A stretch of DNA of 37,048 nt from positions 1-37,048 of the forward strand of contig CAVSBT010000029.1 of assembly GCA_963726245.1 (NCBI GenBank), in the 5' to 3' direction. A model generated the notes under the pieces. The model was not told the DNA's origin. It searched no databases and saw nothing but the letters and a program-made list of their open reading frames with translations. The stretch's first letter is position 1. Every line of letters starts with the position of its first letter. Positions 13,501 through 33,411 of this stretch are shown piece by piece. The translations under genes were made by a program, and so were the position numbers. This DNA comes from an uncultured Chloroflexia bacterium (lineage in GTDB: Bacteria > Chloroflexota > Dehalococcoidia > DSTF01 > JALHUB01).

Positions 13501-15687
13501 GGCGCTGCCCGTGATCTCACCCTCCTCGGCTAGCTGTGGCACTACGTCCAGCGAGAAGCTGTCGAAGGACCTGTATGGCGTCCCCGTCGGGGCGGTGGCC
13601 GTGACCGTGGCCTGGCCGTCGGCGTCGGTGGTGAGCTGCCCTTGCGCCATGCCGTTGTAGTTGAGGCCCAGGTTGGGCACGGGGCTCCCCTCGAAGAAGG
13701 TGGCGCTGACGTCGAAGTTCACGGTCTCGCCAGTGAAGACGGCCTTGCGGTCGGGCACCACGTCGATCTTGTAGGCCGGCTTCACGAAGTCGCGCACCTC
13801 CAGGTAGGTGGAGGTGACCACCTGATCGCCGACAGCGACCTCCAGGTTGTAGTAGCCGGCGGAGACGCCGGCAAAGGAGAGCTCGCCGGTGAAGGTGCCC
13901 GTGGGTGACGTGGTGAAGGTGTCTTCGGCGACGACCACCGGCTCGTACTCGGACTCGGAGCCGCTGCCCGTGATCCGCACCGTCACCTGCTGGGAAGGCG
14001 GCGGGTTCTCGCGGGCCCGCACCAGGCCCCAGAAGTGGATGGTGTCCGTCAGGCGGTAGAGGTGGCGGTCGGTGTAGAGGAAGCGCCAGTAGAAGCTGGG
14101 GTTGCCCACGTAGCCGTAGGCGCGGTACCCGTAGTAGCGGAACCCGGCGAAGATGCTGCCCAAAGGCACCACGGCCGTGCGCCCGTCGGGGGCCTCCACC
14201 ACCAGGTTGCCGACGACGGACGCGGAGCTGTACCCGAACTGGCTGGGCTCGAGCTGTACCAGGTCTTGCGGGGTCTCGAAGAAGGCGACGCCGTCGTCGC
14301 CCGTGGTCACGTCCAGGGTGGCGCCTACGCTGCGCACGCGGGCTCCCTCGATCGGACTGCCGGCAGACACGTCGTTGACCCAGACCAGCGACTTGCCCAG
14401 CCCGATGGAGGCGTAGGTGGCCACGTCGGTGACCTGGAGCCAGCCCTGGAGGCTGCTGGTCGGGCCGCTGGCCTGCACCAGGTAGAAGCCGGCCGGCAGC
14501 GGCGGCCGGAAAGAGCACGAAGTAGTCGCTGTACTCGCCGACCGGCTCCGGCGTGGCCTGGAAGGACGCGGCTTCCTCGAGGCCCGTGGTGTCCTCACGA
14601 TAGCGGGAGCGCGTCTGGTCGGCCCAGGACGGGATGGCGTCGAAGCGGGCCAGGCTCTCCAGGAAGGCGTCCACGTCCGGAAAGCGATAGACGGTGAAGG
14701 AGAGAGGCTCGACGGGCGGCGCCTGGTCGGGGTTCCCGTAGTACGCGCGGTACAGCGACAGCGCAGGCGGCTCGCCCGTTGGCGACTCGGAGACGGCCCG
14801 CGAGAGCTGGATGGAGGAGAAGGGAGCGGGCTGCTCGCCCCGCTTCTCCGAGCCGGTCTCGAACCGGAAGACGAAGTCTTCGCCCAGGGTCTGGTCGCTG
14901 CCCTCCAGGCCCACGCCGGCCCCTACGGTGACGGTGTAGAGGGTGAAGGCGCTCAGGGGCTGGCGGGGGACGAAGACCACCGTCCGCTTGTGGGTCTCGA
15001 ACCGGCCGTCCACCGCCGGCTCGATGTGGAACTGGCTCCCGACGCCGATGACGCCTTCGTGGCTGAAGGTGAGCTCGATGCCGGTGTCCAGGGGGACATC
15101 GGTGGCCTGATCCCGTGGTAGCGTCTGAACGATGCGCAGGGGGCGCTGCACCTGGAAGGCCCAGACGCGGGCGGGCGTGCCGTCGGGCTCCTCCAGGAGG
15201 GTAAAGCGGTAAACCTTGCCCTCGGCCAGTGGCTCTTCGGGGGAGATGGTGGCCTTCTCGGAGCTAACGTCCTCGAAGTTCAGGCCCACGGGCGGCTCGA
15301 CGAGCAGGCGGCTCTCAGATTGTTCAGCCGGGCGCCCTCCTGGGCCGCCAGGACGAAGGAGGTGTCGGGGGCGACGCCGCCGGCGTCGGCTTGAGCAGCG
15401 GCCAGGGAGTAGCGGTTCTCCGGCTCTGGGACCTGGAGCTTCTCCCAATTGGGGCCTGTGGTCGGCGTGGGCGGGGGCGCCTCGACGGTGGGGGCGCCGC
15501 CCCCGCCGCCCCCGCAGCGGATGCCGGCTCCGCCGCCCAGGACGGCCAGGATGAGGATGACCGCCAGGACAGGTCGATGACCTCTGCCCCGTAACCATGC
15601 CCACGGCCGCCCCAGGATCGCTCCTGGCTGCTGGATCGGAGAACGTCCGGGCCCAGTGGTCTGCTCACGTCCTGCTGTGCTACCCAT
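10580..15687 (-). CDS. Bacterial alpha-2-macroglobulin family protein, ~1700 aa, with N-terminal Ig-like domains; four apparent frameshifts (~15320, ~14505, ~11915, ~10803)
   Basis: GGAGGGG RBS and ATG 15687; TM segment; Ig-like (LRIVQTLPRDQATDVPLDTGIELTFS); MG2-type LYTDRHLYRLTDTIHF; VRDFVKPAYKI; AVDEAIF; PREDFKDVAFF...FKLPDNLTSWRVTA; QTPDGGIALF; C-terminal SDLLPSGL...YYARVTGRGEFEAEPA. Confidence 0.88.
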
Positions 15688-15855
15688 GAGACCCCCTCCC
15701 TGGTAGATGGTGCCCACATGATACTAGAGGCCAGGCGCGTTGCGTAGGCGAAAACGCCAGATTTTCGGCCTTCGCGGTGCCTTACACCACCCGACCGATG
15801 CACCTACTCTCTCCTATAGCGCACTCCTCGTGCTGGGGCCGCACTCAGGGAGGAA

Positions 15856-15918
15856 GCGGCGTTGCTACGCCGCAGGAGGCAGAACAGTGGAGAAGCGCCC
15901 CGGGTTGCCCCGGTGCGC
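15856..15918 (-). terminator. Two GC-rich hairpins just after the flxA stop; possible terminator or 3' stabiliser
   Basis: On the minus strand GCGCACCGGG-GCAA-CCCGGGGCGC then TTCTCC, and GCGGCGT-AGCA-ACGCCGC then TTCCTCC; U-tracts are weak. Confidence 0.4.
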
Positions 15919-15920
15919 AC

Positions 15921-16769
15921 TCAATACTCAGGGGGCAGCCGTCTCAGCTCGGCCAGGGTAAAGACTGGGCCGTCCCTGCACACATAGCTGCTGCCGATGT
16001 TGCAGCGGCCGCACATCCCGATGCCGCACTTCATCTTCATCTCCAGGGAGAGCACGACACGCTCCGGGGGGAAATGCAGCCGTTCCAGGACCGGCAGGGT
16101 ATATCGAGTCATGGCGGGCGGTCCGCACACTAGGGCGTAGGTGTCGTCTGCCGCCGGTGCAAGGTCGCTGACCACATCCGGCACCACGCCTACCCGGCCC
16201 TTCCAGTCGCCGTCTGCGGCGTCGACCGTCACGTGAAGTTTCGGGTCATCCCTCTGCCGCCACTGCTCCAGCTCGCCCTTGTAGAGCAGCATCCCCGGTG
16301 TCCTCGCCCCATAGACGACAGTGAGCTTCCCGAACCGGCCCCGGTTGTCTCTCTCCAGCACGTAGTTGATGAGGGAACGGAGGGTGGTGAACGCAAACCC
16401 GCCGCCGATGACGAGCAGGTCTCTGCCCTCCATCTCCTGCAGCGGGAAACTCGAGCCTAGCGGCCCCCTTACTCCCACCAGGTCCCCGTGTTCCATCTGG
16501 TGCAGGGCGCTGGTCAGGAGGCCAGCCCGGCTGACGGTGAACTGTAGGAGGCCGGCCCTGGTCGGCGAGGACGCGATGCCGAACGGCGCCTCCCCCTTTC
16601 CGAACACCGAGAGCTGAGCGAACTGCCCGGGGAGATAGCGGAAGGCCTGCTCATCCTCCTTGTGGATGAAGGAGAGGTCGAAGGTCTTGATGCTGCGGTC
16701 CTCCGTCTCGACGGTGACCTTCTCGATCCTCATAGGGATGGGCACATACGGGCTCTTTGCGATCATCAT
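15921..16769 (-). CDS. flxA: FlxA: FAD/NAD(P)H-binding oxidoreductase with [2Fe-2S] (AsrB/HydG family)
   Basis: PGQF, GEAPFGIASSP, VRGPLG, GGGFAFTTLRS, YGARTP, VCGPP, MKCGIGMCGRC...VCRDGPVF; ATGA overlap with flxB. Confidence 0.88.
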   Translation of the reverse strand: MMIAKSPYVPIPMRIEKVTVETEDRSIKTFDLSFIHKEDEQAFRYLPGQFAQLSVFGKGEAPFGIASSPTRAGLLQFTVSRAGLLTSALHQMEHGDLVGVRGPLGSSFPLQEMEGRDLLVIGGGFAFTTLRSLINYVLERDNRGRFGKLTVVYGARTPGMLLYKGELEQWRQRDDPKLHVTVDAADGDWKGRVGVVPDVVSDLAPAADDTYALVCGPPAMTRYTLPVLERLHFPPERVVLSLEMKMKCGIGMCGRCNIGSSYVCRDGPVFTLAELRRLPPEY

Positions 16770-17794
16770 TCGGCTTGCTTGCTCAGCGACTCGATCTCGT
16801 TCAGCACCTGCCGGATGTCCAGGTTCACCGGGCAGTTCACCACACACCGTCCACAGCCGACGCAGCCCGCCTCACCGTGGCTCTCCGCCCAGTAGCGGAA
16901 CTTGTGCATCAGCCGCTGCCGCCAGCGCTCCTTGCCCGTCGGGCGTGGGTTGTGGCCGGAGGCATGCTGGGTGAAGAGGGGGAACATGCAGGAATCCCAG
17001 AGCTTGAGTCGGCGCCCTCGCTGTTCCGAGCCCTCGTCCACGATGTCGAAGCAGTGGCAGGTGGGACAGAGATACGTGCAGACTCCACAGCCGATGCACT
17101 TCTCGTGCAGGCGGTCCCAGAAGGGGTCGTCCCACATCTCCTGCAGCCTGCGCTCCATGTCCTCCGTCCTGATGGCGCCTCGGAAAGCCGCCTCTGCTGA
17201 CGCCTGCGCCTCTGTCCTGCGGCGGACGCTATCTTCGTCCGCCTCCCTGCACCCGCCGATGCTCTCCATCAGAAGAGCCCCTTTGTCAGTGACCGCCTCG
17301 AGCAGGTAGTCCGTTCCCAGGTCTGTCACCAGCACATCCGAGCCCGTAGCGGAGAAAGGTCCGCCTCCTACCGAGGTGCAGAAGCAGGTAGCCTTCGGGC
17401 TGGTGCACGACAGGCCAACCACCGTGCAGTTCTCTCTCCTCGCCAGGTAACACCCGTCGCACTGGTTGCCGCCGGCGAACACCCGGTCCAGGAAGGTGAA
17501 GCTTCGCGCATCGCAGGGCCGGACGCCGAACAGCACCTGCGACCGCGACGCCGGCTGCGGTTCCTCCAGCGCAAGCTGTCCCCGTTCCAGGCTGTAGGCG
17601 AAAAGAGTCTCGGTCTGGGGGAAGAACAGCCCCTTCGGCGGCAGTGTCGAATTGTGGTAGTCGAGGCGCACCTGCTGCGGCGAGTCCACCTGCCGGAAAG
17701 CGATCACGCCGTCGTCATTGACCGGAGCGAACACCTCGCGGCCCTGGAGCAGCGCCTCCAGCAGCACCGACATCTGGTCCTTTGCGAGAAGCAC
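16766..17794 (-). CDS. flxB: FlxB: 4Fe-4S dicluster protein (AsrA/HydB family)
   Basis: PKGLFFPQTE, FGVRPCD, TCFC, CIGCGVCTYLCPTCHCF, WDSC, HKF, CVGCGRCVVNCP; start estimated at GTG 17794. Confidence 0.87.
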   Translation of the reverse strand: MLLAKDQMSVLLEALLQGREVFAPVNDDGVIAFRQVDSPQQVRLDYHNSTLPPKGLFFPQTETLFAYSLERGQLALEEPQPASRSQVLFGVRPCDARSFTFLDRVFAGGNQCDGCYLARRENCTVVGLSCTSPKATCFCTSVGGGPFSATGSDVLVTDLGTDYLLEAVTDKGALLMESIGGCREADEDSVRRRTEAQASAEAAFRGAIRTEDMERRLQEMWDDPFWDRLHEKCIGCGVCTYLCPTCHCFDIVDEGSEQRGRRLKLWDSCMFPLFTQHASGHNPRPTGKERWRQRLMHKFRYWAESHGEAGCVGCGRCVVNCPVNLDIRQVLNEIESLSKQAE

Positions 17795-17798
17795 GCTC

Positions 17799-18749
17799 TC
17801 ACCGGATGAAGTCTCCAGGGTCGTCAGGGCTGAACGTGGAAAGCGGCATCGGCTCATGCACATCGAGCCCAGCCTTGTAGTGAAAGAGCTCTTCCACGTC
17901 CTTCTCCACCTTCTTTGTGAGCAGTCTCAGGTCGAGGCCCACGGGGCAGGCCCGTTCGCAGGCGCCGCAGTCTACGCAGCGACCCGCCGTGTGCATGACC
18001 CGCATGATCTGGAAGACGAGGGCATCCGTGGCGTCAGTCGACGGGCTCAACCAGCGGGGCTGGGTGCTGTCCACAAAGCACTCCGCGCAGTAGCACAGCG
18101 GGCAGGCGTTGCGGCAGGCGTAACAGCGGATGCACCTGCTCGCCTGGGCCATGAAGAACTGCCAGCGCTCGCCTGCCGGCATGGCTTCGAATTCCCGCAC
18201 CGCTGCGTACTCGTCGTCGGCCGGCTCCTCCGCGACCGGATCGCCGATGAGGGTGTCATATATCACCGGATTGCGAGAGCGGCAGGCACGACAGGAGGCG
18301 TGAAGATAGCGCTCCTTCTCCAGGGCGATCTCGAAGCCGTCCCCGCGGAGGAGCACTTCCCCTTCCCCCTCCTGCACATCGATTGCCTCTCTCCCCGCCA
18401 GCTCGCTCTCGATGCGCCGCCGGTCGATCACGCCCCGGCAGGGAACGCCGATAATGTGCAGCCGCTCTCGCTCTACCTGTCCCTCCCTGAGAAGCCCAAC
18501 GATGGAGCGCGTGTCGCAGCCCTTGGCGATGATCCCCACCCTTTCGCCACGCCGCGGCAGGTACTTCGCGAGGTTGTTCTCGCAGCTCATGTTCCAGACC
18601 AGCCGCTCGACCTCAGCGGCATCCCTCACGAAGCAGGGCGAACTGCGCAGAGGAAGGCTGCCTGCCTCAAAGCCGATGACGACATCCACCAGCCCGTCGC
18701 TCAGCAGCCGCCTGGCAGCATCCCTTATCGCCGGCGCGAGGTCCGTCAC
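17799..18749 (-). CDS. flxC: FlxC: 4Fe-4S protein
   Basis: CENNLAKYL, KGCDTRS, IIGVPC, CIRCYACRNACPLCYC..C, CVDCGACERACP; GTG 18749 overlaps the flxD stop. Confidence 0.86.
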   Translation of the reverse strand: MTDLAPAIRDAARRLLSDGLVDVVIGFEAGSLPLRSSPCFVRDAAEVERLVWNMSCENNLAKYLPRRGERVGIIAKGCDTRSIVGLLREGQVERERLHIIGVPCRGVIDRRRIESELAGREAIDVQEGEGEVLLRGDGFEIALEKERYLHASCRACRSRNPVIYDTLIGDPVAEEPADDEYAAVREFEAMPAGERWQFFMAQASRCIRCYACRNACPLCYCAECFVDSTQPRWLSPSTDATDALVFQIMRVMHTAGRCVDCGACERACPVGLDLRLLTKKVEKDVEELFHYKAGLDVHEPMPLSTFSPDDPGDFIR

Positions 18750-19195
18750 GGCGCCCCCTCTTGATCCCGGGCCCTGATCAGCCGCTGGGCAGGCCCCAGT
18801 GCCCGCACCGACTCGGTCACCTCTGCCACCACGTGGGCGAACTTGCCGCCCTCGGACGCGGACACCCAGGCGAACTGCACTCGCCCCTCCTCGATCCCCA
18901 CGTACTCGAGCAGACCCTTGAGCAGGGCGAAGCGCCTTCTGGCCAGGTAGTTGCCTTCGAGGTAGTGGCAGTCGCCGGGGTGGCACCCGGAGACCAGCAC
19001 GCCATCGGCGCCGTGCATGAGGGCGCGGACGATGAACAGCGGGCTCACCCGACCAGCGCACGGCACGCGGATGGTGCGCGTGTTGGGCGGGTACTGGAGG
19101 CGGCTCGTCCCCGCCAGGTCGGCGCCGGCGTAGCTGCACCAGTTGCAGAGAAAGGCCACTATCCGTGGTTCCCAGTGACTGTGCTTCTCTTCCAC
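18746..19195 (-). CDS. flxD: FlxD / MvhD-type [2Fe-2S] subunit
   Basis: FLCNWCSYAGADLAG, RVPCAGR, ADGVLVSGCHPGDCHY, WVSASEG. Confidence 0.93.
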   Translation of the reverse strand: MEEKHSHWEPRIVAFLCNWCSYAGADLAGTSRLQYPPNTRTIRVPCAGRVSPLFIVRALMHGADGVLVSGCHPGDCHYLEGNYLARRRFALLKGLLEYVGIEEGRVQFAWVSASEGGKFAHVVAEVTESVRALGPAQRLIRARDQEGAP

Positions 19196-19210
19196 GGACG
19201 GCCACTCCGC

Positions 19211-22200
19211 CTACAACGCCGCTATCGAGGCGAGGACCTGCTCGTTGCTGACCCCGTGGACATCGATCGCCCCCGGCCAGCAGGCAGCAGCGCACGCCCC
19301 GCAGCCCTTGCACACGACCTCGTCGACCACAGCGACCCTCGCCTCGCCGTTGACACTGATCGCCCCAAAGGGACACACCGCCTCGCAGAGGCCGCACCCC
19401 GAGCACTTCCTGGCCTGCACCTCGGCGACGATCGCCGGCGCCTCCAGGGCCTCTTGCGCCAGGATGGAGGCTGCCCGTGAGGCTGCGGCCTGAGCCTGGG
19501 CTATGGCCTCGTCCAGGGACTTCGGACCGTGGGCCAAGCCGCAAAGGAACACCCCGTCTCGGGCGAAGTCCACCGGACGCAGCTTCATGTGAGCCTCGAG
19601 GAAGAAGCCATCGCTATCCAGAGGCACCTTCAGCAGGCTCGAGATGCGGGCGTTGTCCTCGTTGGGGACCGTCGGCGCGGCCAGAGCCAGGATATCCGCC
19701 TCCACCTTGACCACACGGTTGAGGTCGCAGTCCTCGCCCGTGACCAGCAGCGCCCCCGACCCGGCCTCTACCGAAGCCTGCGGCGGCGCATCCGGCCGGT
19801 AGCGGTGGAAGCGGACGCCTCGCTCTCGCGCCAGCCGGTACGACTCCTCGGACAGGCCGTACGTCATCATGTCGCGGTAGAAGACGCGCACGTCAATCTC
19901 GGGGTTGAGCTCCTTCAGCCTCAAGGCGAGCTTGACCGTCTGCCGGCAACAGGTCCGGCTGCAATAGGGCCTATCGTCGTTCCGGGAGCCGGCGCACTGG
20001 ATGAATGTGACGTTGCGGGCCCGTGCTACGAGAGCGCCCTTCGACGCTATCTCGTCCTCCAGCTCGAGGAGGGTTAGCACCCGCTCATCTGCGCCGTACG
20101 GGTAGCCGGTGGGTCGCCCTTCCTGTGCGCCGGTGGCAACGATGATCACGCCGTGCTCGATACTCCGCTCCTGCCCGTCGGTGCGGCCAGCGATGACGGT
20201 CGAGAAGTTGCCCACGTGGCCACGGACCTCCCGCACCTCGGCGTTCCGGTGGACGGTGATCAGCGGGTCGTTCTCCACCCGTGCGACGAGGGCTTTCACC
20301 TGCACGCTGACGTCCCCGCCGTCGAGGGAGTAGCGCAGGCGGCTGGCTATGCCGCCCAACTCGTCATTCTTCTCCACAATGTGGACAGGGAAGCCCTGCT
20401 CCGCCAGAGACAAGGCTGCCGTCATGCCGGCAACTCCGCCGCCCAGCACGAGGGCCGAGCGGTTTACTGGCAGCGAGAGGCGTGAGGCCGGCCGGGCAAT
20501 TCGTGCTCGCGCCACAGCCATGTTCAGCAGCTCGGCGGCCTTCCGGGTCGCGACCTCCTGCTGGTGCATGTGTACCCAGGAGCATTGCTCGCGGATGTTG
20601 GCCATCTCGAAGAGGGCGGGGTTCAGGCCGGCCTGACGTATGGTGTCCTGGAACAGCGGCTCGTGGGTGCGCGGCGTGCAGGCGGCCACCACCACCCGGT
20701 TTATGCCCAGCTCCTCGACGGCCTCGATGATGCGCCGCGACGTATCTACCGAACAGGTGAAGAGGTTCTCCTCGGCGTGCGCGACGTTAGGGAGGCTGCG
20801 GGCGTAGTGCACCAGCGACGGCACGTCCACGACGCGGCCGATGTTGGTGCCGCAGCGGCAGATGAAGACTCCGATGCGGGGACGTTCGCCGGAGACGTCC
20901 TTCTCCGCAGGATACTCCTTTGCGGTCGCCAGGCTGCCGCGAACATCGGCCAGAAGCTGCGCTGATAGGGATGCCGCGCCGCTCGCCATCGTCACGGACT
21001 GCGGGATGTCGGCGGGGCCAGCGAAGACGCCCGCCACGAAGACGCCGGCGCGAGAGGTGGAGACCGGCGAGGAGGGACTCGTGCGGCAGAAGCCGTTGCC
21101 ATCGATCTCCACACCCAGCTTCTCGGCCAGCTCCAGGCAACCGCTACTTGGCGCCATGCCCACCGAGAGCACTACCAGGTCGAACTCCTCCTCGTGGGCC
21201 GTGTTGTCTTCGCCCCAGAAGCGGATGAGGAGTCCCTTCGTCTCCTGCACCTCCTTGATCGTGGACACGAGGGTCCGGACGTAGCGTACGCCCGGCATGC
21301 GGCTCACCTGGCGGTAGTAGTGCTCGAACCCCTTGCCGTAGCTGCGGACATCGTTATGGAAGACGGTAGCCTCAATACCCGCGTCGTGCTCCCGGGCCAT
21401 CGTCAATTGCTTCGCCGCGTACATGCAGCACACCGCCGAGCAGTAGACCCGGCCGCGCGCGGGATCACGAGAGCCGACGCACTGGATCCAGGCGATCCTC
21501 TTTGCCGGCTGCCCATCCGAGGGACGAATCACCTGTCCTTCACTGGGCCCGGAGGCGCTGAGGATGCGCTCAAACTCCAGTCCAGTCACCACGTTGCGGT
21601 AGCGCCCGTACCCGTACTCCGGCTTGTCCCTCGCATCAAACGTCTCATAGCCGGGCGCCAGGATGATGGCGCCGACGTTGATCTCCAGCCTGCTGTTCGC
21701 TCTGGCGCATGTCGATTGCCTTGCGGCGGCACGTCTGAGCGCAGATCTTGCACTGCTTCGACGTGTGGAAGAGGCAACGCTCCGCATCAACTACCGATAC
21801 TGCCGGCACGGCCTGGGCAAAGGGGACATGGATGCACTTCGTGGTCGACAGGCCCTCGTTGAAGGGGTCGGGCACGAACACGGGGCAGTAGTCGGCGCAC
21901 GTCCCGCAGCCGGTGCACTTCTCTTCATCAACGAAGCGAGGCTTCTTCAGCAAGACCACCGTGAAGTTGCCCGCCTCTCCCTGCACCTCATCGACACGCG
22001 CTCGCGTTATGATCTCGATGTTCGGGTTCCTCTCGCAGTCGATGAGCTTCGGCGAGAGGATGCACATCGAGCAGTCGTTGGTGGGGAACGTCTTGTCGAG
22101 CTGGGCCATCCGCCCGCCGATGCTCGGCGACTCGTCGACGAGGTAGACCTTGAAGCCCACCGCGGCCAGGTCCAGCGACGCCTGGATGCCGCTTACCCCG

Positions 22201-22295
22201 CCACCCACCACGAGGACAGCCCCCACCTTGGAGAGCAACTCCATGCCCGTCTCCGGCTGCTCGTCCAGCAGGCTCGAGGTAGTTGCCTCTGCCAT
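19211..22295 (-). CDS. hdrA: Large (~1030 aa) HdrA-family flavoprotein with two FAD-binding modules; one apparent frameshift (~21690)
   Basis: VLVVGGGVSG, GGRMAQLDKTFPTNDCSMC, ferredoxin insert, IQCVGSRD..CSAVCC, internal RIGVFICRCGTNI, AACTPRTHE, NIREQCSWVH, second LVLGGGVAG, IQCAGSR..CSRTCC, FLEAHMKLRPVDF, C-terminal 2x[4Fe-4S]. Confidence 0.92.
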
Positions 22296-23095
22296 CAGAG
22301 GACTCCCGCCTTCGCCAGAACCGGCACCGGGTTGACCATGTGCCGCCGCCACCACGACTCGGTTCCCTCCAACCCAAGCGCGCAGGCCAGCAGCTCGGTG
22401 AAATACATCACGGGAAGGCCGCGCTCGTCCTGTCGCGTGTCTAGATTCGTCTGGCACAGAGGACAGGCGGTGACGATGCAGTCTGCCCCCGCCTCACGGG
22501 CCATCTCTACCAGGCGGCCGCTCAGCCGGCGAACCACGTCCGGACGCGCCACCGCCAGCCCCGCCCCACAGCAATCGGTCTTGAACGACCAGGGACGCAC
22601 GTCAGCCCCAGCCGCGGACATCACCTGGTCCATCGACTGCGGGTCCTCGTAGTCGGCCCTGCCGGTGAGTTCGGGAGGTCTCACCAGAAGACAGCCGTAG
22701 TAGCAGACGACCTTGAGGCCGTTTAGAGGCCGCCGGAGCGACTCGCGGAGCCGGCCCAGCGTCTCTGAGCTGCTGGCTATGTCCAGCGCGTGGAGCACCG
22801 TCACTCGCGAGGACGATTCCTTCTCGGCCACCTTCAGCCGGTGGTAGCAGGCGGCGCAGGGCGCGACGAGGTAGTCTCCTTCCGCCTCGGCCAGCTCCAG
22901 GTTGCGCGTGGCCAGCGCCACCGCCAGCGCCGGGTCGAGCGAATGCGCCGCGCTGGCGCCGCAGCACGTCCAGCCGGCTAGCTCGTGCAGGTCTATCCCC
23001 AGCGCGCCATAGACCAGCCTTGTCGACGCGTCATACTCGCGCGACATCCCGTGCAGGGAGCAGCCGGGATAGTACGAGACGACCGTCACCCTCAT
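22295..23095 (-). CDS. hdrB: Heterodisulfide reductase subunit B
   Basis: YYPGCS, WTCCGA, APCAAC, YYGCLL, TDCCGAG, TACPLCQ (two CCG domains). Confidence 0.93.
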   Translation of the reverse strand: MRVTVVSYYPGCSLHGMSREYDASTRLVYGALGIDLHELAGWTCCGASAAHSLDPALAVALATRNLELAEAEGDYLVAPCAACYHRLKVAEKESSSRVTVLHALDIASSSETLGRLRESLRRPLNGLKVVCYYGCLLVRPPELTGRADYEDPQSMDQVMSAAGADVRPWSFKTDCCGAGLAVARPDVVRRLSGRLVEMAREAGADCIVTACPLCQTNLDTRQDERGLPVMYFTELLACALGLEGTESWWRRHMVNPVPVLAKAGVL

Positions 23096-23649
23096 TTTCC
23101 CTTCGCCCGCTCAAAGAGATGGCGCAGTTCCCCCGTCGCGGCCTTCTTCGGTAGGGCAAGGGGGATCTTGCCCTTCCGGACCATCCTTGCCCCCAGCCGG
23201 ATGTCCCCCGGGAGACGCCTGGCCCTCAGCGAGTAGCGGGCCATGAGCGCCATCTCGTGCACACGGCCGCGGGCTCTCACTTCGTCCAGAAAGGCACGGT
23301 AGAACGCCAGCACCCGCCCATCGCGGGGCTTCACGCCGGAGGCCGCGGCCCGCTGCTTCAGAGCGTCTATCACCCCCGCCACGTCCACGCCGTTCGGACA
23401 CCGGGTGGTGCAGGTCTGGCAGGAGGTGCAGAGCCAAATCCCTGAGCTACGCAGCGCCTCTTCCTCGAGGGCGGCCGCCACCAGCCTGACAAGCTGGTGC
23501 GGGGCAAGCTCCATGTCGTCGGCGACAGGGCAACCCGCCGAGCACTTCCGGCAGGAGAAGCACAGCTCGGGGTCCAGGCCCTCGACTCCACGGATGCGGT
23601 CAGCCGGTGAGACGCAAGCGCTCCTGGGCCCGGCTCTGTTGACAGTCAT
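23092..23649 (-). CDS. hdrC: Heterodisulfide reductase subunit C
   Basis: CFSCRKCSAGCP and IWLCTSCQTCTTRCP; GRVHE. Confidence 0.92.
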   Translation of the reverse strand: MTVNRAGPRSACVSPADRIRGVEGLDPELCFSCRKCSAGCPVADDMELAPHQLVRLVAAALEEEALRSSGIWLCTSCQTCTTRCPNGVDVAGVIDALKQRAAASGVKPRDGRVLAFYRAFLDEVRARGRVHEMALMARYSLRARRLPGDIRLGARMVRKGKIPLALPKKAATGELRHLFERAKGK

Positions 23650-23664
23650 GGCTACGTTGCGGGG

Positions 23665-24039
23665 TCAGACATCGACCAGCGTCAGGGCGCCGCTGGGACA
23701 CCACTTGACGCAGGAGGGGTTAGGCGGCACGCCACAGAAGTCACACTTGAGCGGGATATCGGTGTCCGGCTCTCGGAAGATGGGCTTCGCTGGGCAGGAG
23801 GCCCTGCAAATGAGACACTTGTCGTACTCCCGCCCGCCGATGACCACGATGTTTCGGGAGTTGCACTCGGCGTCCGTGTACGGGCCGGCCAGCTCCGGGA
23901 AGCACAGGTCATCCTTTCGAAACACCCTGATCCGCGAGCGCTGTGGGTCGACCGTGTCCGGCACGTGGTGCAGCGAGCACGCCACCTCGCACAACCGGCA
24001 GCCCGTGCACTTGTCGTAGTCGATCCTTATCTTCTGCAC
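23665..24039 (-). CDS. BamC-like multi-[4Fe-4S] electron transfer protein
   Basis: KCTGCRLCEVACS, RSRIRV, AGPYTDAEC, GREYDKCLICRASCP, FREPDTDIPLKCDFC, CVKWC. These match motifs recalled from BamC of class II benzoyl-CoA reductase; the C-terminus is shorter. Confidence 0.75.
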   Translation of the reverse strand: MQKIRIDYDKCTGCRLCEVACSLHHVPDTVDPQRSRIRVFRKDDLCFPELAGPYTDAECNSRNIVVIGGREYDKCLICRASCPAKPIFREPDTDIPLKCDFCGVPPNPSCVKWCPSGALTLVDV

Positions 24040-24063
24040 CCCGACCTCTGTCCCAGAGCTAGG

Positions 24064-25869
24064 TCACAGTTTCAGTTCAGACAGCTTCTCCGACGTCGGT
24101 ACGCCGGTCTCATCCCATCCCCGCATCCGGTAGTACTGCGGCAGCATCTGCCCGAGCGAGCACACCCGGCCCTGCGCGGGTCCGTCCGGCATGGGCTCCT
24201 CGAGCCAGCGACGGGGCAGCCGATCCTGCTCCTGCCCTACGCCGCACTCCAGATTGAAGCGCCGCTCCAGGTTCACCACCCTCTCGCCTATCTGACGCGC
24301 CGACTCTTGCGATAGCTCAAGCCCCGTGGCAGCGTTGGCAACCCGCAGGGTGTCTTCCAGCGGCAGCGCGATGGCCGCCAGCGGACAGACTCCCAGCGAG
24401 TCGAGAAACGCCTCCATGTCCTGACGCTCGATCACGCTGGCGACCACCTCCTCTGAGGGTGGGGCCTCCTTCGAGCCTCGCAGAAGGCGGCTCGCCAGGG
24501 GTGTCCCCTCGACCCGGCTCGGGCCATGGTTCGCCGTCGCGTACCAAAGGCCGAGCGCGTCGTCGCCGCGCGGGTCGTAAGGCGCGGCGGCGCGGCCCTT
24601 GACGCCCATGAACAGCTCGGGCTGTCCGTACCTCTCCGCCAGCGCCGAGGGCCCATCGGCCAGGATCTCGCCGGAGCGGCGGCGCTGGGCCATGCGGTTG
24701 AGCTGCAGCAGAACCGCCTCGGCGTCTCCGAATCTGAGCTCGGACCCCAGGTCCTGCTCAGGGATCAGGCCCTTCTCCGCCAGCTCCATGGCGCAGGCGA
24801 TGGTGGAGCCGCCGCTGACCGGGTCGATCCCCTGTTCGGCGCAGAGATAGCTGGCCCGGGTCACCGCCTGCAGGTCTGCCACGCCGCAAAGAGCCCCCAG
24901 CGCTCCCAGCGCCGCATGGTCCGGGCCCTCGCCGACCGCCGTCGAGTCAGCGGTGGGAATCTTGGTGAGCCGTCCGCAGGCTATCGGGCAGCCGAAGCAG
25001 CCCAGGCCGCGACTGAGGATACTCGCTGCGATGGCTCGGCCGCCGAGCGCGGCGCTCCCCTCGAGAACGCTGCTCTGGAAGTGCCGCACGCCTAGCGTTC
25101 CCTGCGAGCCGGCGGCCTCGATCATCGATGCGGTGCCCAGCGGCGAGAGCACGTCGCTGACCAGCGACGACCGCTTGATCCGGTCGACGACATGCGAGAT
25201 GGCGTTGCGGAAGGCCTCCCCGTCGGCCACCGGCAGTCCCCTCGTCCCCCGCACCGCGACCGCCTTGAGCTTCTTGGACGCCATTACAGACGCCAGACCG
25301 TCGCCCTGGCCAAAGCCGTAGCCGTCCGCCACGACCGTCGCCACCGCGGATAGCTTCTCGCCCGCCGGCCCGATTCCAAAGATCCGGGTCTCGCTGCTCT
25401 TCCAGGCGTCCCCCGCCTCGGAGCGGATGAGCTCTTCAGCCTGATGAACGGTGCGGCCCCAGAGATGGAGGCCGACCGCCGCTGTCACCGAACCATCGCG
25501 GACATTGAGGTACGAGGGCTCGGCGGCCTGACCTTCGATGATGAGGGCGTCGTAGCCGGCGAACTTCAGCTCGGCGCCGAAGTGGCCCCCGAGTACGCTA
25601 CAGGCAAGGCCGCCCATCGGTGACTTGGCCGCGACGCACCAGCGCGAGCTCCCCACCGCGCCGACTCCGGTCAGGAGCCCGGGGGCCACGACCACCTTGT
25701 TCCCGGCGCCAAACGGGTCCTCCCCGGCGCCTACCTCACTGGCAATGATGTGCGCCGCCAGTCCGCGCCCGCCCAGGAAGCGTCCAGCTACCTCCGGGTC
25801 AAGCTCCTCGACCGTGCGCTGGCCGGAACTCAGGTTGACCCGGAGGATGCGATTCGTTCTTGCGCTCAT
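24064..25869 (-). CDS. Aldehyde:ferredoxin oxidoreductase (AOR/WOR) family protein with degenerate active-site motifs
   Basis: ILRVNLS, FLGGRG, KSP, ELKFAGYD, IGPAGE, SKKLKA, CFGCPIACGR, YDPRG, DSLGVC, YYRMRGWDETGVPT; intact 601-aa ORF. Confidence 0.9.
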   Translation of the reverse strand: MSARTNRILRVNLSSGQRTVEELDPEVAGRFLGGRGLAAHIIASEVGAGEDPFGAGNKVVVAPGLLTGVGAVGSSRWCVAAKSPMGGLACSVLGGHFGAELKFAGYDALIIEGQAAEPSYLNVRDGSVTAAVGLHLWGRTVHQAEELIRSEAGDAWKSSETRIFGIGPAGEKLSAVATVVADGYGFGQGDGLASVMASKKLKAVAVRGTRGLPVADGEAFRNAISHVVDRIKRSSLVSDVLSPLGTASMIEAAGSQGTLGVRHFQSSVLEGSAALGGRAIAASILSRGLGCFGCPIACGRLTKIPTADSTAVGEGPDHAALGALGALCGVADLQAVTRASYLCAEQGIDPVSGGSTIACAMELAEKGLIPEQDLGSELRFGDAEAVLLQLNRMAQRRRSGEILADGPSALAERYGQPELFMGVKGRAAAPYDPRGDDALGLWYATANHGPSRVEGTPLASRLLRGSKEAPPSEEVVASVIERQDMEAFLDSLGVCPLAAIALPLEDTLRVANAATGLELSQESARQIGERVVNLERRFNLECGVGQEQDRLPRRWLEEPMPDGPAQGRVCSLGQMLPQYYRMRGWDETGVPTSEKLSELKL

Positions 25870-25966
25870 CGGTGCACTCGCGGGAATGGCGAGGCACAGC
25901 CCTCGCCTCTGGCCCGCATCCCATGACCATTGGGCGGGCAGCCCTTGCCAGCCCGCAGGGTTTGGC

Positions 25967-26185
25967 CTAGGCCTTGCCCATCAACCAATCGAGGCTCTTC
26001 TCCTCCAGCGCCTTGTCATAGCTGAATGCGGTGCAGGCGCGGCGGCAGATGCCGCAGCCCACACACTCATCGGATTCGACGTAGACGGTGTTCGTGTGGA
26101 CAGTGATGGCGCCGGAGGGACAAACCGCCTCACAATAGGGAACACGGCAATTCTGTCGACAGATTACGTTCATCATCTGGAGCAC
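25967..26185 (-). CDS. Small ferredoxin-like 4Fe-4S protein (72 aa)
   Basis: AAGGAG RBS; CRQNC..PYCEAVCPSGAI and CVGCGICRRAC. Confidence 0.8.
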   Translation of the reverse strand: MLQMMNVICRQNCRVPYCEAVCPSGAITVHTNTVYVESDECVGCGICRRACTAFSYDKALEEKSLDWLMGKA

Positions 26186-26215
26186 TCCTTCACAGCAGCC
26201 CTTCCCGTGCCGGGG

Positions 26216-27780
26216 CTAACCCAGGATCCGGTCCGCCTCTTCCTTGTCCAAGTCCATGACGTAGGGTATGCCGGAGACCGCTGCCGCTTCCGGCGTAAGG
26301 GCTACCAGGTCATCCCTCTCCAGGTACTGCAAGGCGAACTTGCGTGCCCCGGCCATTAGCTGCTTCAGCCCCCCTGCCAGACGGTCGAGGTAGTTGAGCA
26401 TCCCGATAGCCGATGGTGGTACACGCTTGAAGTCTGCGCCGAACCTCTCCTTGAGCGCGGCGGCCCCGACGAAGACCTTCACCAGGGCCTCATCGTAGTC
26501 CTCCGGGTCGGGGTACTCTCGCTCCTTCATCAGCTCCCCGTAGGTGTTGCCCACCATGGCCGCGGCCATGGTGGCCCGGCCCATGCAGCAGGCCTTCACG
26601 TAGGGGGCGCCGAGGGCGATGGCCTTAAAGATGTGGTCCTCCAGCGAAAGCCCCCCGGCGATGGCGACCGGGGGTACGTAGGCGCCCCTCTTCGCCAGTC
26701 GGTCCAGGTAGTCGTAGAGCAGGCATTCCAGGTAGACGGTGGGGATTCCCCATTCGTTCATCATGCGCCAGGGGCTCATGCCCGTGCCGCCGCCGGCGCC
26801 GTCCACGGTCAGCAGGTCGATCTTGGCGTCAGAGGCCCACTTACTGCCCGGGCGAGGTCCGCCGGACGGTAGGCGCCGGTCTTGAGGGTGACGTACTTGG
26901 CGCCTATGCCGCGCAGCCGCTCCACCTCACGATGGAAGCCATCTTCACTGACCATCCCCAGCCGCGAATGCCGCTCGAATCCGTGGAGCGCCCCCTGACG
27001 GAAGGCGTCTCGGCTCACCGCTTGCGCCGGGTCGGGTATGACGAGGTACCCGCGGCTCCTGAGGAGATCGGCGCGCTCCAGGGTCGGCAGTTTCACCTCG
27101 CCGCCGATATCCTTGGCCCCCTGGCCCCACTTCATTTCGACGGTCTGCACGCCGAGCTTCTCGACCACGTACTCCGGGACCCCCAAGCGGCCGTCCTCCA
27201 CGTTGTACTGGACGAAGATCCCGCCCCAGCCGTCGTACCACTCCTTGAAGGTGTTGACCCGGCGCTCCATCTCCGGCGAGCGGACCACCCTGCCGTTCTG
27301 GATCTCTGCCTCCGGGTCCATGCCGCAGACGTTCTCTCCCACGACGACAAGGATGCCGGCGATGGCTGCGGCGATAGCCATGCCCTCCCAGTGCACGCGG
27401 GCGATGTCGGTAGAGCCGAGGGCGCCGGTGAATACCGGAAGCCGCATCTTGAGAGACCCATCCGCACCCACGGCGGTCGTGACGTCAACGGCAGGGAAGA
27501 TCGCCTCGTCCGGATCGGCCTCTACCCCCACGGCGCCCACGCAGGTTCCCATGATGTTGAAGTGGGAATAGTCGATGGGGTAGTCCTTCTCGGAACCGGC
27601 CGTCACCTTCCCGAAGGGTTGAGGGTAGAGCATCTCGCGGCCTCGCAGCGCGGACCGGCCTATCTCGCACGGGCCAGTGCAGCCATCGAAGCAGGTGGTG
27701 CACATCCCTGATATCGGCGAGACGTCAGCTCGCGTGGTCGTAAGCGTGGCCGCACTGGCGTTAGGCTTGCTGAGTGACAT
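26216..27780 (-). CDS. Stand-alone FMN-binding glutamate synthase family protein (~520 aa) with N-terminal Cys cluster; one apparent frameshift (~26842)
   Basis: AAGGAAGGAG RBS; CTTCFDGCTGPC; GALGST, VVGENVCG, EMKWGQGAKDIGGE, TVDGAGGGTG, IAGG, KAIALGAP. Adding one A at GTAAG gives AVKWASDAKIDLLTVDG and joins the two ORFs. Confidence 0.85.
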
Positions 27781-27901
27781 CATTGCTCCTTCCTTGACGA
27801 CAAGCAGTCGTTGGCACCCTTTGAGCTGGCGTGGTTGACACAGCAGGCAATGTCGTGAAAGGCCAGGGCGGGGTTGCGGCGGGCGGTGGCCGCTTGCCGT
27901 T

Positions 27902-27930
27902 ACCCTACCCGCCCGACGCGCCTGTGTCAA
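27902..27930 (-). promoter_or_regulatory. Putative sigma70 promoter of the redox operon
   Basis: TTGACA (27930-27925), 17 bp spacer, TAGGGT (27907-27902), ~120 nt upstream of the first start codon. Confidence 0.55.
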
Positions 27931-27977
27931 GCCGGCTGTCGGCGTCGCAACTCGCAGGTTCGGGGCGATTCTGGGGG

Positions 27978-28030
27978 TGGCGGGCGCTGTGGGGCTCGAA
28001 CCTAGGACGCCCGCGACTAAGAGTCCACTG
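27978..28030 (-). pseudogene. Degenerate tRNA-Lys(CTT) 3' fragment
   Basis: Minus strand CAGTGGACTCTTAGTCGCGGGCGTCCTAGGTTCGAGCCCCACAGCGCCCGCCA has the GACTCTTA anticodon loop, GGTTCGAGCCC T-loop and a CCA end. Anticodon and T stems are mismatched, and the 5' acceptor strand and D-arm are missing. Confidence 0.6.
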
Positions 28031-28047
28031 GTCGCGGTGATCGCAGG

Positions 28048-30058
28048 CTACTCCACAAGGAGCACATCATCGACTAGACGCGCCGAGCTCCGCGGCCTCG
28101 TCCCCTGCTGCCGAGGTCGTCAAGTCCAGCGTTCCCTTGCGCACCCGCATCCGTACGTAGTACGGGCCCGGTTCCAGATTCCGGGGCACCAGCACGTAGT
28201 ACTCCTCCTTCACGATCTCGCCCGTGCCCCACTGGCTCGTCGGGTAGAGGCCCCCACCCAACTCATGGCTCTGCCACCACAAAGGAAAGCCGTATCTGAC
28301 CCGCAAAGTCCCATCCTGGTTGGTGAAGAAGACGGTGGCCTGCAAGTCTTCCTCGGCCGGAGTCTCCAGGCGCCAGTAGTACGACACCTGAAGGACATCA
28401 CCTCGCTTGACCACCTTGGGGTCGGTCGGAAACCAACGAGGGTTACCGCGTCACCGAAAGGCATGTCGAGTTGCGCGGAGGATGGAACCTCTTCGACGGA
28501 CAGCGTCGGCGGGTCTTGAAGGACGCGGTAGAACGACCCGCTCGGCACCAGGTCGTCCTTGTATTCGGGCTTGGGGAGCACGTTCGTGAGCATGGTCTCG
28601 ATCCTGTTCAGAACGACAGGCTGGACGTAGTACTCGTCTCGGATAGCGTCCAGGTCGTCTCGCAGGCCTTCCGCCACGTACACAGGCCGGCCCTTCTCGA
28701 ACTGGCCGGCGATGAAGGCGCCCACGTCTTCGCCCGGGGCGGAAAGGACAGGCGAGACGAACACGTCGCGCCGGTAGCCCTCCACAAGCTGCACATACCA
28801 CAGGGGAGAGGCCGTCCAGCTATCGGTGACGATGGTGGAGTTGGGCTCGACCCGTTCGAGCGTCGTGCGGGCGAAGTCGTAGGCGCTGTAGTCATGGCTT
28901 CGGTCCACGACGGGCAGGCTGCGCGCGAAGAGCACGAGCGGTAGAGATGCCAGGACGAGAGCCGCCAGCGACCAGCGCAGCCCTGGTCGCACCACGCTCA
29001 ACTGGGACGCTCCGAGGCCGGCCCGGCGGGTAACAAAGGAGAGGATCGCATCGGCCCCGTAGCCGATCCAGACCCCCACCATCAGATAGGCGGGGATGAA
29101 GTAGTTGAAGACGTTGTGGATCATGTAGGTGAGGACGAGGAGTCCAATGGAGGCGCAGAGCAAGAGGCTGTAGGCGGCGAACAGCCGGTCGCGCTTGAGG
29201 GCGGAGACGAGGCCGATGGCCGCCAGGATGAGCCCGAAGGCCGTCACCTCATGCAGGGGGAACAGCGCCAAGATGTCCAGCCGGCCCAGGAACGCGAAGT
29301 TCCAGTATTCACTCCCGCTGTCCCCGGTGAGGAACATGCGCCAGTAGGTATTGAGATTGGCAGGCTGGGCCCAACTCAGCGGCTGGCTCCTGGGAGCCGC
29401 GGATCGGCAGGTACAGGTAGACGGAGAGCCCCAGCAGGAAGAGAAGGGCGAGTTGCAGCCAGTGGCCAGTGCTGAGGCGCCTTCGGCCGGCCCACAGGAA
29501 CAGGAGGATGCCCGGCGCGAGCAGGACAATGAGGCGGTGGTTGCCGATGCTGAGGCCGAAGGCCAGAAGGGCCAGACGGACATACCAGACCTGACCCGTC
29601 GTCCGCCAGCGGAGCAACAGCCACGTGATGAGGGCCGTCGAGAAGGCGTTCAGGGGATAGGAATCCGCCCAGTTGGCACTGGCCCAGAGAGTCGAGGAGA
29701 AGGCCACCGTGAGCGCGCCGATGAGAGCTGCCGCTCGATTTCGAGTGAGCTCAGCGATGATGAGGAAGACGAACGCCACCGTAAGCGAGGCGAAGACGGC
29801 CGACATGAGGTTGACCCGATAGGCGACGTCGCCGATGGGGAAGAGGGTGAACAGCTTGCCTAGCAGGATGTAGAGAGGGTAACCGGTGTTATGGGCAATA
29901 CCCAGTACGTATGAGGCTGTCGTGAGCTCCCCCATGTCGTACCACATGACGGTGGGGGCCAGCGTGCGCAGGTAGACGACGAACGCCGCCAGCCCGGCCA
30001 GGGCCGCACACACGCGGGAGTCCAGCGCAACCGCCGACCTGAGTAGGCGCTGAGCCAT
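28048..30058 (-). CDS. DUF2723 / TMEM260-like GT-C glycosyltransferase (~670 aa), apparent frameshifts (~29395, ~28425, ~28075)
   Basis: YLRTLAPTVMWYDMGELTTASYVLGIAHNTGYPLY, YRVNLMSA, GNH, YLYLPIR, many TM helices, PLWYVQLVEGYRRDV, C-terminal YW...YPTSQW..GEIV...PGPY domain. Confidence 0.82.
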
Positions 30059-30067
30059 GCCTGCCCC

Positions 30068-31896: not shown

Positions 31897-31907
31897 GGAG
31901 CTGACCC

Positions 31908-32492: not shown

Positions 32493-32497
32493 GTCTG

Positions 32498-33409: not shown

Positions 33410-33411
33410 CG

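Follow-up and report, generated by a model that had tools for sequence, protein, structure and literature searches.

A conserved operon joining a glutamate synthase-like flavoenzyme, a ferredoxin and an altered AOR-fold protein to Flx-Hdr genes in an uncultured Chloroflexota bacterium: a candidate modular electron-bifurcating complex

Introduction

Can an electron-bifurcating core of the Flx-Hdr type be combined, within a single operon, with a flavoenzyme of the glutamate synthase (GltS) family and a protein that has the fold of the aldehyde oxidoreductases (AOR)? This question is raised by eleven genes of contig CAVSBT010000029.1 (assembly GCA_963726245.1), which belongs to an uncultured Chloroflexia bacterium. 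The stretch analysed here (below, the window) has a length of 37,048 nucleotides (nt) and corresponds to contig C29 in a bin of 46 contigs and 2.68 Mb, which has a completeness of 82.8% and a contamination of 6.3%. In it, the genes hdrCBA-flxDCBA are preceded by four others, which encode a GltS-like enzyme with a TIM barrel for flavin mononucleotide (FMN), a small ferredoxin (Fd), an AOR-fold protein that we call pAOR, and an iron-sulfur (Fe-S) protein similar to BamC of class II benzoyl-CoA reductase (BCRII). An initial examination of the letters alone, named here the sequence-only reading, had proposed a new electron-bifurcating complex made of these parts. Our analysis leads us to regard the locus, tentatively and with somewhat less than even confidence, as one conserved operon that would encode a modular bifurcating or confurcating enzyme based on the HdrA flavin, with a FlxABCD-HdrABC core, a layout like that of BCRII, and a low-potential branch that would lead to the BamC-type subunit, a relic AOR, the ferredoxin and the FMN enzyme.

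Results

Conservation of the operon

When metagenome contigs were scanned for pAOR, 80 loci were obtained. Eleven of them (L085-L095) carried a protein 67-95% identical to pAOR, the others reaching 43% at most, and among protein clusters 11 only were more than 66% identical to it, the next being at most 48% identical. The eleven subfamily loci fell into two lineages, between which identity was about 67% for the AOR-fold protein and 81-84% for the GltS-like one. Sediments and wetlands are among the habitats of these relatives. The order GltS-Fd-pAOR-BamC-HdrC-HdrB-HdrA was kept in all eleven as far as the DNA extends. Where enough DNA was present on the relevant side, the GltS-like and ferredoxin genes were always found upstream (8/8) and the BamC-like gene always downstream (8/8), as were hdrC and hdrB (7/7), hdrA (5/5) and flxDCBA (2/2). 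Identical operon order was also shown by the same-genus genome G001 and by contig C18 of the same bin. The linkage of the four upstream genes to hdr, which the sequence-only reading had proposed to look for in other genomes, holds in every related metagenome locus with enough DNA, an outcome in favour of that reading, but is essentially absent among the 80 best GltS-like loci elsewhere.

Substitutions between copies lay mostly at third codon positions in every gene; in the comparison of pAOR with its L093 counterpart, they numbered 112, 71 and 288 at positions 1, 2 and 3, respectively. By this bias, pAOR is under purifying selection and not decaying.

The eleven genes lie on the minus strand from 27783 to 15921, the block reaching from 27930 to 15921 when the promoter is included (Table 1). 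Gaps of 30 nt (gltS-like to fd), 97 nt (fd to the pAOR gene), 24 nt (pAOR to bamC-like) and 15 nt (bamC-like to hdrC) separate the first genes, the second of these being the widest intergenic gap of the operon, and 15 nt also lie between hdrA and flxD, while the pairs hdrC/B, hdrB/A, flxD/C, flxC/B and flxB/A overlap. These coordinates agree with the eleven co-directional and tightly spaced genes that had been noted at the outset. The flanks are unrelated to the operon: an A2M-like protein is encoded on the downstream side, and the upstream side has pilus genes and a gene for a membrane protein.

Table 1. Coordinates of the operon genes and of the signals around them in the window (aa, amino acids)
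Feature	Position	Strand	Details
Promoter	27902..27930	-	-35 TTGACA 27930-27925, spacer 17 nt, -10 TAGGGT 27907-27902
Small GC-rich hairpin, first part of the 5' leader	27877..27899	-	letters changed but hairpin kept in relatives
GltS-family FMN/Fe-S oxidoreductase (521 aa intact)	26216..27783	-	PF01645, 63 bits on the G001 orthologue
Ferredoxin-like subunit, 72 aa, 2x[4Fe-4S]	25967..26185	-	eight cysteines: Cx3Cx4Cx3CP ... Cx2Cx2Cx3C
AOR-fold protein pAOR, 601 aa	24064..25869	-	AFOR_N and AFOR_C matches
Fe-S subunit of BamC type (124 aa) with cysteines for three clusters	23665..24039	-	4z3w_E, E 6e-38
HdrC, 185 aa, two 4Fe-4S motifs	23092..23649	-	domain matches
HdrB, 266 aa, two complete CCG domains	22295..23095	-	PF02754 in two stretches
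HdrA, fused double, about 1027 aa intact	19211..22295	-	TrxR1 carrying an Fd insert, then N-domain, TrxR2 and an Fd domain at the C-terminus
FlxD/MvhD, 149 aa	18746..19195	-	PF02662, E 2.5e-55
FlxC, 316 aa, Fe-S	17799..18749	-	domain matches
FlxB, 345 aa intact	16766..17802	-	domain matches
FlxA, 282 aa; FAD, NAD and 2Fe-2S domains	15921..16769	-	PF00970, PF00175, PF10418
Two GC-rich hairpins right after the flxA stop	15856..15918	-	z -1.55; absent from the scanner list

The AOR-fold protein

The pAOR protein matched PF02730 (AFOR_N, 1.4e-57) and PF01314 (AFOR_C, 5e-108), and shows the full-length AFOR fold. Its nearest solved structure was the AOR of Pyrococcus furiosus (1aor_A, E 1.8e-136), and BamB (4z3w_A, E 2.1e-46) came ninth of nine structure matches, so that pAOR does not qualify as a BamB-type subunit. 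The four cysteines of the [4Fe-4S] cluster are retained (Cys288, 291, 295 and 494 aligned). In the numbering of the P. furiosus enzyme, we take Glu313 and His448 to be the catalytic residues, and Arg76, Asn93, Arg182/Ala183, Asp338, Asp343, Lys450 and Asp489 are presumably the ligands of tungstopterin and Mg.

In the window protein, both catalytic positions are changed, Glu313 to Ala and His448 to Arg. In addition, Lys450 is replaced by Glu, Asn93 by Val, Asp338 by Ala, and Arg182 and Arg186 by Gly, with YGFGQGDG in the place of HRAAGRGG. The pterin ligands Arg76, Asp343 and Asp489 are still present, and one DxxGxC motif remains. The change at Arg182 was limited to the window, P0001 and P0002. 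Across all 11 subfamily clusters, Glu313 is Thr or Ala and His448 is Arg; NSGG reads (V/A)(L/P)GG, the RAAGR region (R/G)FG(L/Q)G, EGPEYE reads EGPEH(T/A), and NRGACH corresponds to x-x-GPGR. Replacement of Glu313, His448, Lys450, Asn93, Asp338 and Arg186 is common to all 12 subfamily members. In contrast, the canonical residues are found in the consensus of 109 further proteins of the AOR clade, and a much more distant AOR encoded on contig C19 of the same bin retains NSGG, RLAARSG (RxAAR), EYE/Glu313 and His448.

In a FastTree phylogeny of 116 sequences, the pAOR subfamily formed one clade on a long stem, with two neighbours, a degenerate group (P0096, P0111 and P0114) and the group of L110-L118. 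The former is the sister group of the pAOR clade; its members, labelled Deltaproteobacteria at their source, are devoid of both pterin-binding arginines and of Glu313, and keep His448.

The term pseudo-AOR, taken from the sequence-only reading, is well founded at the residue level. The statement of the sequence-only reading that this subunit is neither BamB nor a normal AOR was likewise upheld, both by the structure matches (1.8e-136 versus 2.1e-46) and by the replacement of catalytic and pterin-binding residues. We infer that the tungstopterin cofactor has been lost from pAOR. A classification of the WOR family from 2026 distinguishes five classes (I-V); in its accessible text, GmBCR is the sole Hdr-linked member described and the pterin content of WorL is taken as conserved.

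The BamC-like protein and the Hdr and Flx modules

Residues 3-122 of the 124-aa protein aligned with residues 12-136 of BamC (4z3w_E, E 6e-38), the approximately 40 C-terminal residues of BamC being absent, and the matches to AorA (8c0z_C, E 1.3e-11) and to the WOR5 small subunit (8e-9) were much weaker. This protein is a clear homologue of BamC, and its designation as BamC-like can thus be maintained.

The intact HdrA aligned with methanogen HdrA in three parts: residues 26-395 with 146-517 (the TrxR core with its inserted ferredoxin domain), residues 464-635 with 2-167 (the N-domain and the start of a second Rossmann fold), and residues 850-1026 with 477-651 (the last part of TrxR plus the ferredoxin domain at the C-terminus). 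By these alignments, the operon HdrA is a fused, permuted double HdrA. According to the accessible text of a cryo-electron microscopy preprint on BCRII (10.64898/2026.04.10.717634), BamE is a fused, permuted HdrA dimer, from whose inserted ferredoxin domain the path runs through three BamC clusters to BamB, the other branch leading to the HdrBC-like BamD. By comparison with this description, the operon HdrA shares the fused double-HdrA architecture of BamE.

In HdrB, both CX(n)CCGX(n)CXXC sets are complete, and HdrC is a separate protein with two 4Fe-4S motifs. The best models for FlxABC were the beta and gamma subunits of sulfhydrogenase and AsrAB. No DsrC (PF04358) was found in the 83%-complete bin. 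Elsewhere in the bin, a second HdrA (43-48% identical) is encoded next to an MvhD (62%) at G000:C14:23140-26186, and FlxB/FlxA-like genes are located at C27:41558-43951.

The GltS-like enzyme and its ferredoxin

The match of the 521-aa GltS-like protein to PF01645 is partial, with 63.1 bits (cut-off 20.4) over profile positions 185-303 of 369. Its AlphaFold2 model shows an FMN TIM barrel with a mean predicted local distance difference test score (pLDDT) of 77.5, whose fold neighbours are alpha-hydroxy-acid (FMN) oxidases and GltS itself (1ofd_A). Four cysteines of an N-terminal CxxCxxxCxxxC motif (Cys27/30/34/38) and many residues of the barrel are invariant over 37 homologues. A sequence search of the PDB gave no match at E<=0.01, and neither amidotransferase nor GXGXG domains were present in the 521-aa protein. 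The automatic names of the Atlas agree with the label "FMN-binding glutamate synthase family", on which our literature search found no biochemical work.

This family comprises at least 597 loci in a species-level genome set, spread over many phyla and 55-69% identical. Neighbourhoods were counted in the best 80 of these at least 597 loci. Each of the partners found in the operon was seen near the GltS-like gene once in 80: AOR (on the opposite strand), a BamC-like gene (a weak match), hdrA (9 kb off), flxAB (on the opposite strand) and a ferredoxin. In other phyla, the genes directly 5' encoded a NuoF-type flavoprotein in 52/80 and a 2Fe-2S/4Fe-4S protein in 58/80, whereas Bacillota contexts presented glnA (16/80) and ANTAR regulators (14/80), with GATase_2 seen once (L010). 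The nearest outgroup, from Ammonifex (69% identical), has a small ferredoxin gene followed by NuoE-, NuoF- and FdhA-like genes. Since Ammonifex and other phyla pair the FMN enzyme with other redox modules, it seems to behave as an end module that is fed by whichever redox module is encoded alongside.

Two stereotyped contexts can be recognised among these loci (L005-L084; L010, L016 and L007), namely the NuoF-type flavoprotein with a 2Fe-2S/4Fe-4S protein, or glnA/ANTAR. Both contexts hint that the family may be an unstudied enzyme that takes part in nitrogen assimilation and is linked to NADH or ferredoxin. Thus, of the earlier description as an FMN TIM-barrel enzyme of unknown function, the barrel is borne out by the model, but the family does have a context, in NuoF-type modules or glnA/ANTAR.

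The 72-aa ferredoxin is 81-98% identical across the clade and has a net charge of about -1, as counted from the sequence. It resembles the core of the two-cluster WorS-type subunits that precede ordinary AOR genes (41-43% identity). A motif scan for a small cysteine-rich open reading frame (ORF) after GltS-like genes elsewhere gave 0/75, a count in which L007 was scanned at the wrong paralogue; hand translation showed that a ferredoxin is present in L007.

Promoter, leader and 3' end

The TTGACA-N17-TAGGGT promoter of the sequence-only reading is present in the window, and TTGAC(A/C)-N17/18-TAGGnT was kept in 10/10 aligned upstream regions, with conservation of both hexamers. The alignment of relatives breaks down 5' of the -35 box, where the flanks differ. 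This pair of boxes was omitted by a consensus promoter scanner, and its -10 box agrees with the consensus at 3/6 positions. Position 27930, given earlier as the start of the range, does lie at the promoter, but it marks the -35 box and not the start of a gene.

The folding of the entire leader was no better than that of shuffled sequence (z 0.33). A search of Rfam over 25800-28300 (E<=1) gave no match, so that neither the leader nor the first genes showed a riboswitch or another known RNA family; ARAGORN detected no tRNA over the window. Directly upstream of the promoter, at 27975-28060 on the minus strand, we observed a stretch having a tRNA-like GGTTCGAGCC loop and a CGCCCGCCACC end, which was recognised neither by ARAGORN nor by Rfam. 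The flank upstream of the operon in L086 contains integrase, methyltransferase and terminase genes, and because integrase and terminase genes occupy this equivalent flank, the stretch in the window may be what remains of a site of integration.

In the spacer between fd and the pAOR gene, inspection by eye of ten regions (those of the promoter alignment minus C18 plus L089) did not reveal a comparably conserved -35/-10 pair. This spacer holds a 135-nt insertion in L086-L088 (L086:9767-10001, L087:8913-9147, L088:3361-3594), rich in inverted repeats, which may be a small repeat element. At the other end of the operon, the hairpins that follow flxA are possibly terminators with weak U tracts.

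State of the window copy

Two genes of the window copy are split, gltS-like by a 1-nt deletion near 26842/26843 and hdrA by a 1-nt insertion at 21692. In flxB, the loss of 1 nt near 17793 affects the first 10 codons, and an in-frame ATG at 17773 is still usable. None of the three indels was found in G001, whose operon is 93-94% identical to that of the window, in the C18 copy or in L086, and the frame-restoring state at 17791/17793, 21692 and 26842 was present on contigs of 4 public runs. As the relatives and these four runs carry the unbroken state, the three indels are private to this assembly. In L086, all operon genes lying wholly on the locus are intact ORFs, including a single 1027-aa ORF for HdrA; flxA extends past the end of that locus. 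Among public sequencing runs, none was found that contains more than 0.40 of the words of the window stretch, and no RNA run is listed for it.

Over 12,111 columns, the second copy of the operon, on contig C18, shows 89.8% identity; it carries six 1-nt insertions that are private to it, and its similarity to the window stops at 15815. Two apparent peculiarities of hdrA were discarded. Both bin copies shift frame in this gene, and a programmed frameshift was considered but rejected: the two sites (21692 and 21634) are separated by 58 nt, neither is present in G001, hdrA is one uninterrupted ORF of 1027 aa in L086, and the extra base is missing from other runs. An apparent 155-nt insertion in hdrA of G001 is really a scaffold join, made of 100 N and a duplicated 55-nt flank (L004:11657-11756).

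Outside the operon, an A2M-like gene with Big_5, MG2, A2M_BRD and A2M domains (window 11911-15604, minus strand) is split into two overlapping frames, 13517-15604 and 11911-14598, the fourth frame break of the window. Twins with 78-94% identity are located on other contigs of the bin (C34, C30, C18 and C17) for the window stretches 98-3174, 4466-9515, 15815-27910, 30041-34788 and 35983-37048. About 24 kb of the window has twins of this kind. Such twins fit two related populations binned together, in line with the contamination of 6.3%, and not true duplications. Because of these twins and of the split A2M-like gene, the data suggest that the bin is mixed or indel-prone.

It is an even matter whether the window copy itself encodes a working complex or is instead a decaying cluster of pseudogenes, or a set of assembly errors in a mixed bin. 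The private indels here and in the C18 twin, the equally broken A2M-like neighbour, the extent of the twin stretches and the contamination of the bin all speak for a defective copy, and the strong third-position bias of the substitutions and the intact state of the relatives against it. In any case, this doubt bears on the present copy and not on the nature of the system.

Discussion

Proposed electron path

Starting from the observed gene content, conserved order, promoter, residue losses and purifying selection, an electron path can be proposed in which the contacts between subunits, the direction of flow, the loss of the cofactor and the substrate are those that we infer by homology with Flx-Hdr and BCRII. 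NADH would enter at FlxA, with its flavin adenine dinucleotide (FAD), NAD and 2Fe-2S domains, and electrons would reach the bifurcating FAD in the fused double HdrA by way of FlxB, FlxC and FlxD, the last being of the MvhD type. The high-potential electron would go by HdrC to HdrB, still similar to a disulfide reductase, and on to a disulfide. The low-potential electron would leave through the inserted ferredoxin domain of HdrA towards the three-cluster BamC-type subunit and the [4Fe-4S] cluster of the AOR-fold protein, which, deprived of its acid/base pair and of about half of the tungstopterin set, would most likely have the role of a relay or scaffold instead of acting as a tungsten enzyme. 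The catalytic end point would then be the GltS-family FMN/Fe-S enzyme, reached through the 72-aa two-cluster ferredoxin and, judging from the family context, probably reducing a 2-oxo or imino acid in the manner of glutamate synthase. Electrons could also flow in the reverse direction.

As for its origin, it is conceivable, though rather doubtful, that the operon arose by replacement of a catalytic module: a Hdr-coupled AOR ancestor with BCRII-like wiring would have lost its tungsten site while the AOR fold was kept as a [4Fe-4S] relay or scaffold, and a GltS-type FMN enzyme would have been recruited with its ferredoxin to form the new low-potential output, giving one supercomplex in which electrons from NADH would drive an FMN-based reduction.

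Several observations weigh against a single complex of this kind. The linkage of the four genes with hdr is confined to one small clade; the gltS-like gene of this clade was found in 2/41 relatives, and the pAOR type in 1/401 sampled genomes of the phylum, which is the bin itself. Two operon genes of the window copy, gltS-like and hdrA, carry frame breaks, and a canonical Glu_synthase gene is present separately on contig C30 of the bin. In structures of the BamBC and AorAB types, the Fe-S subunit docks at the sole surface near the AOR [4Fe-4S] cluster, so that a chain from BamC through pAOR to the ferredoxin has no obvious second exit. Moreover, a GltS-type reduction requires no low-potential electrons, and relatives appear to run it from NADH modules, which obscures the energetic rationale. 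Finally, the motifs that have replaced the canonical ones in the pocket show high conservation of their own in the subfamily (for example, GPGR(V/I)EG and CAEQG(I/M/V)DP), a pattern compatible with a functional pocket no less than with a relic.

Alternative explanations

A different arrangement, to which we give a chance well short of even, is that two enzymes share one transcript without forming a supercomplex: Flx-Hdr, with a vestigial pAOR-BamC pair, would make reduced ferredoxin from NADH, and the GltS-like enzyme with its Fe-S subunit would use it separately, the two being coupled only by the ferredoxin pool. Such independence would agree with the family elsewhere, where the GltS-like gene is unlinked to AOR, hdr or flx (about 1/80 each) and pairs with other donors; it also suits the position of the widest gap, the 97 nt that part fd from the pAOR gene and tolerate the 135-nt insertion in L086-L088, and, from the accessible parts of the literature, the reports of Flx-Hdr next to other enzymes, as in Adh/Aor metabolism and in a succinate operon. 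Harder to reconcile with two separate enzymes are the strict co-inheritance of GltS-Fd with pAOR-BamC-hdr throughout the loci of the clade, downstream of a single conserved promoter, the purifying selection on pAOR, and the net charge of about -1 of the ferredoxin, unlike that of typical free acidic ferredoxins.

The two remaining alternatives concern pAOR. It seems improbable that this protein is a metallopterin enzyme with a new chemistry, as BamB is, which would place it at the low-potential catalytic end and leave the GltS-like enzyme and the ferredoxin as accessories or as a second output. The loss of the phosphate and Mg positions (Asn93, Arg186, Lys450 and, for this lineage, Arg182) and of Asp338 from the first pterin motif, all retained in the distant AOR of the same genome, argues against such an enzyme; the strong conservation of the replaced motifs and the persistence of one DxxGxC motif, of Arg76 and of the cluster cysteines argue for it, as do neighbouring clades with altered sites, among them L110-L118 with Glu313 changed to Arg beside BamC-like and fused HdrA partners. 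A precedent is also provided by BCRII, for which the preprint cited above and a review, in their accessible text, describe an AOR-family enzyme capable of chemistry beyond aldehyde oxidation. We consider it very improbable, on the other hand, that the locus is an ordinary aldehyde or ethanol module like that of Desulfovibrio, with an active AOR making reduced ferredoxin beside Flx-Hdr. The AFOR matches of pAOR are indeed strong, and in Desulfovibrio, Flx-Hdr is connected with the oxidation of ethanol together with Adh and Aor, according to the accessible text of the corresponding work; nevertheless, Glu313 and His448 are replaced, pterin ligands are lost, the partner is of the BamC type and not of the WorS/AorA type, and the operon contains no adh gene.

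Significance

HdrA-based bifurcating modules are now regarded as building blocks that evolution has plugged into varied input and output units. To our knowledge, among the solved cases, BCRII alone has a subunit of the AOR family as its output. The operon described here would be a second, simpler chassis with an AOR output, provided with a Flx input, an intact-looking HdrBC, an apparent pseudo-enzyme AOR and an added FMN enzyme. Should the parts assemble, they would illustrate how bifurcating machines change their chemistry, give a first functional handle on the widespread and unstudied "FMN-binding glutamate synthase family", and add a cofactor-degenerate member to a tungsten-enzyme family whose classification assumes a conserved pterin site. 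Should they not, the locus would still be a conserved operon pairing Flx-Hdr with a ferredoxin-dependent enzyme.

Comparison with known systems

The closest counterpart of the downstream half is FlxABCD-HdrABC of Desulfovibrio vulgaris, for which it has been proposed that the oxidation of NADH is coupled with reducing ferredoxin and a disulfide. The same seven genes are found here in the same hdrCBA-flxDCBA order, on one strand and tightly packed, with the same domains, including the FAD, NAD and 2Fe-2S domains of FlxA, the Fe-S proteins FlxB and FlxC, an MvhD-type FlxD, an HdrB with two CCG domains and an HdrC with two 4Fe-4S motifs. Coordinates and domains thus sustain the Desulfovibrio-type arrangement that had been recognised from the start. 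In contrast to that system, four additional genes lie upstream in the window, and DsrC was not found in the 83%-complete bin. In other organisms, by the accessible reports, Flx-Hdr adjoins other enzymes, the succinate operon being one example.

Regarding BCRII of Geobacter metallireducens (BamBCDEFGHI), the likeness extends over a collinear set of AOR-fold protein, BamC-type subunit, HdrBC-like proteins, double HdrA, MvhD-type protein and NADH module. However, the AOR-fold protein differs from BamB and is devoid of several pterin ligands. BamD is fused and has a disrupted distal cluster, whereas HdrC and HdrB are separate here and their CCG motifs complete; BamF is more than 100 aa longer than the 149-aa MvhD of the operon; and the HydABC-like input of BamGHI contrasts with a FlxABC of the sulfhydrogenase/AsrAB-like type. 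In addition, the operon includes the FMN enzyme and the ferredoxin. The parallel with BCRII drawn by the sequence-only reading therefore stands for the list of parts, their order, BamC and the fused double HdrA, but not for the counterparts of BamD, BamF and BamGHI, which are not BCR-like.

With P. furiosus AOR (1AOR) and WOR, pAOR has in common the AFOR fold and the four cluster cysteines, but differs in the catalytic and several pterin residues. The GltS-like protein shares PF01645 and the FMN TIM barrel with glutamate synthase, from which it differs in the absence of the amidotransferase and GXGXG domains and in its extra N-terminal CxxCxxxCxxxC motif.

A further comparison is offered by the clusters of L110, L111, L113, L114 and L118, whose BamC-like protein is 58-60% and fused HdrA 51-54% identical to those of the operon. 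They come from the same part of the AOR tree, but have no GltS-like, ferredoxin or Flx genes. Their AOR, which matches 9mqx_D at 1.5e-190, keeps the pterin arginines and His448 and has Arg in the place of Glu313. An example of this type, at L118:2628-13110, consists of genes for AOR, a BamC-like protein, a 1038-aa fused HdrA, MvhD, FAD oxidoreductases, HdrC, HdrB and an HdrD-like protein. We found no description of this AOR-Hdr arrangement in the literature.

No complex or gene combination with the composition of the present operon was found either in the openly accessible main texts, in agreement with the sequence-only reading, to which no described complex of this kind was known. The GltS-type module goes unmentioned in the accessible part of the paper on the Bfu family. 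In conclusion, set beside these systems, the operon appears to be a new variant within the HdrA-based modular bifurcating complexes, rare and derived from uncultured organisms.

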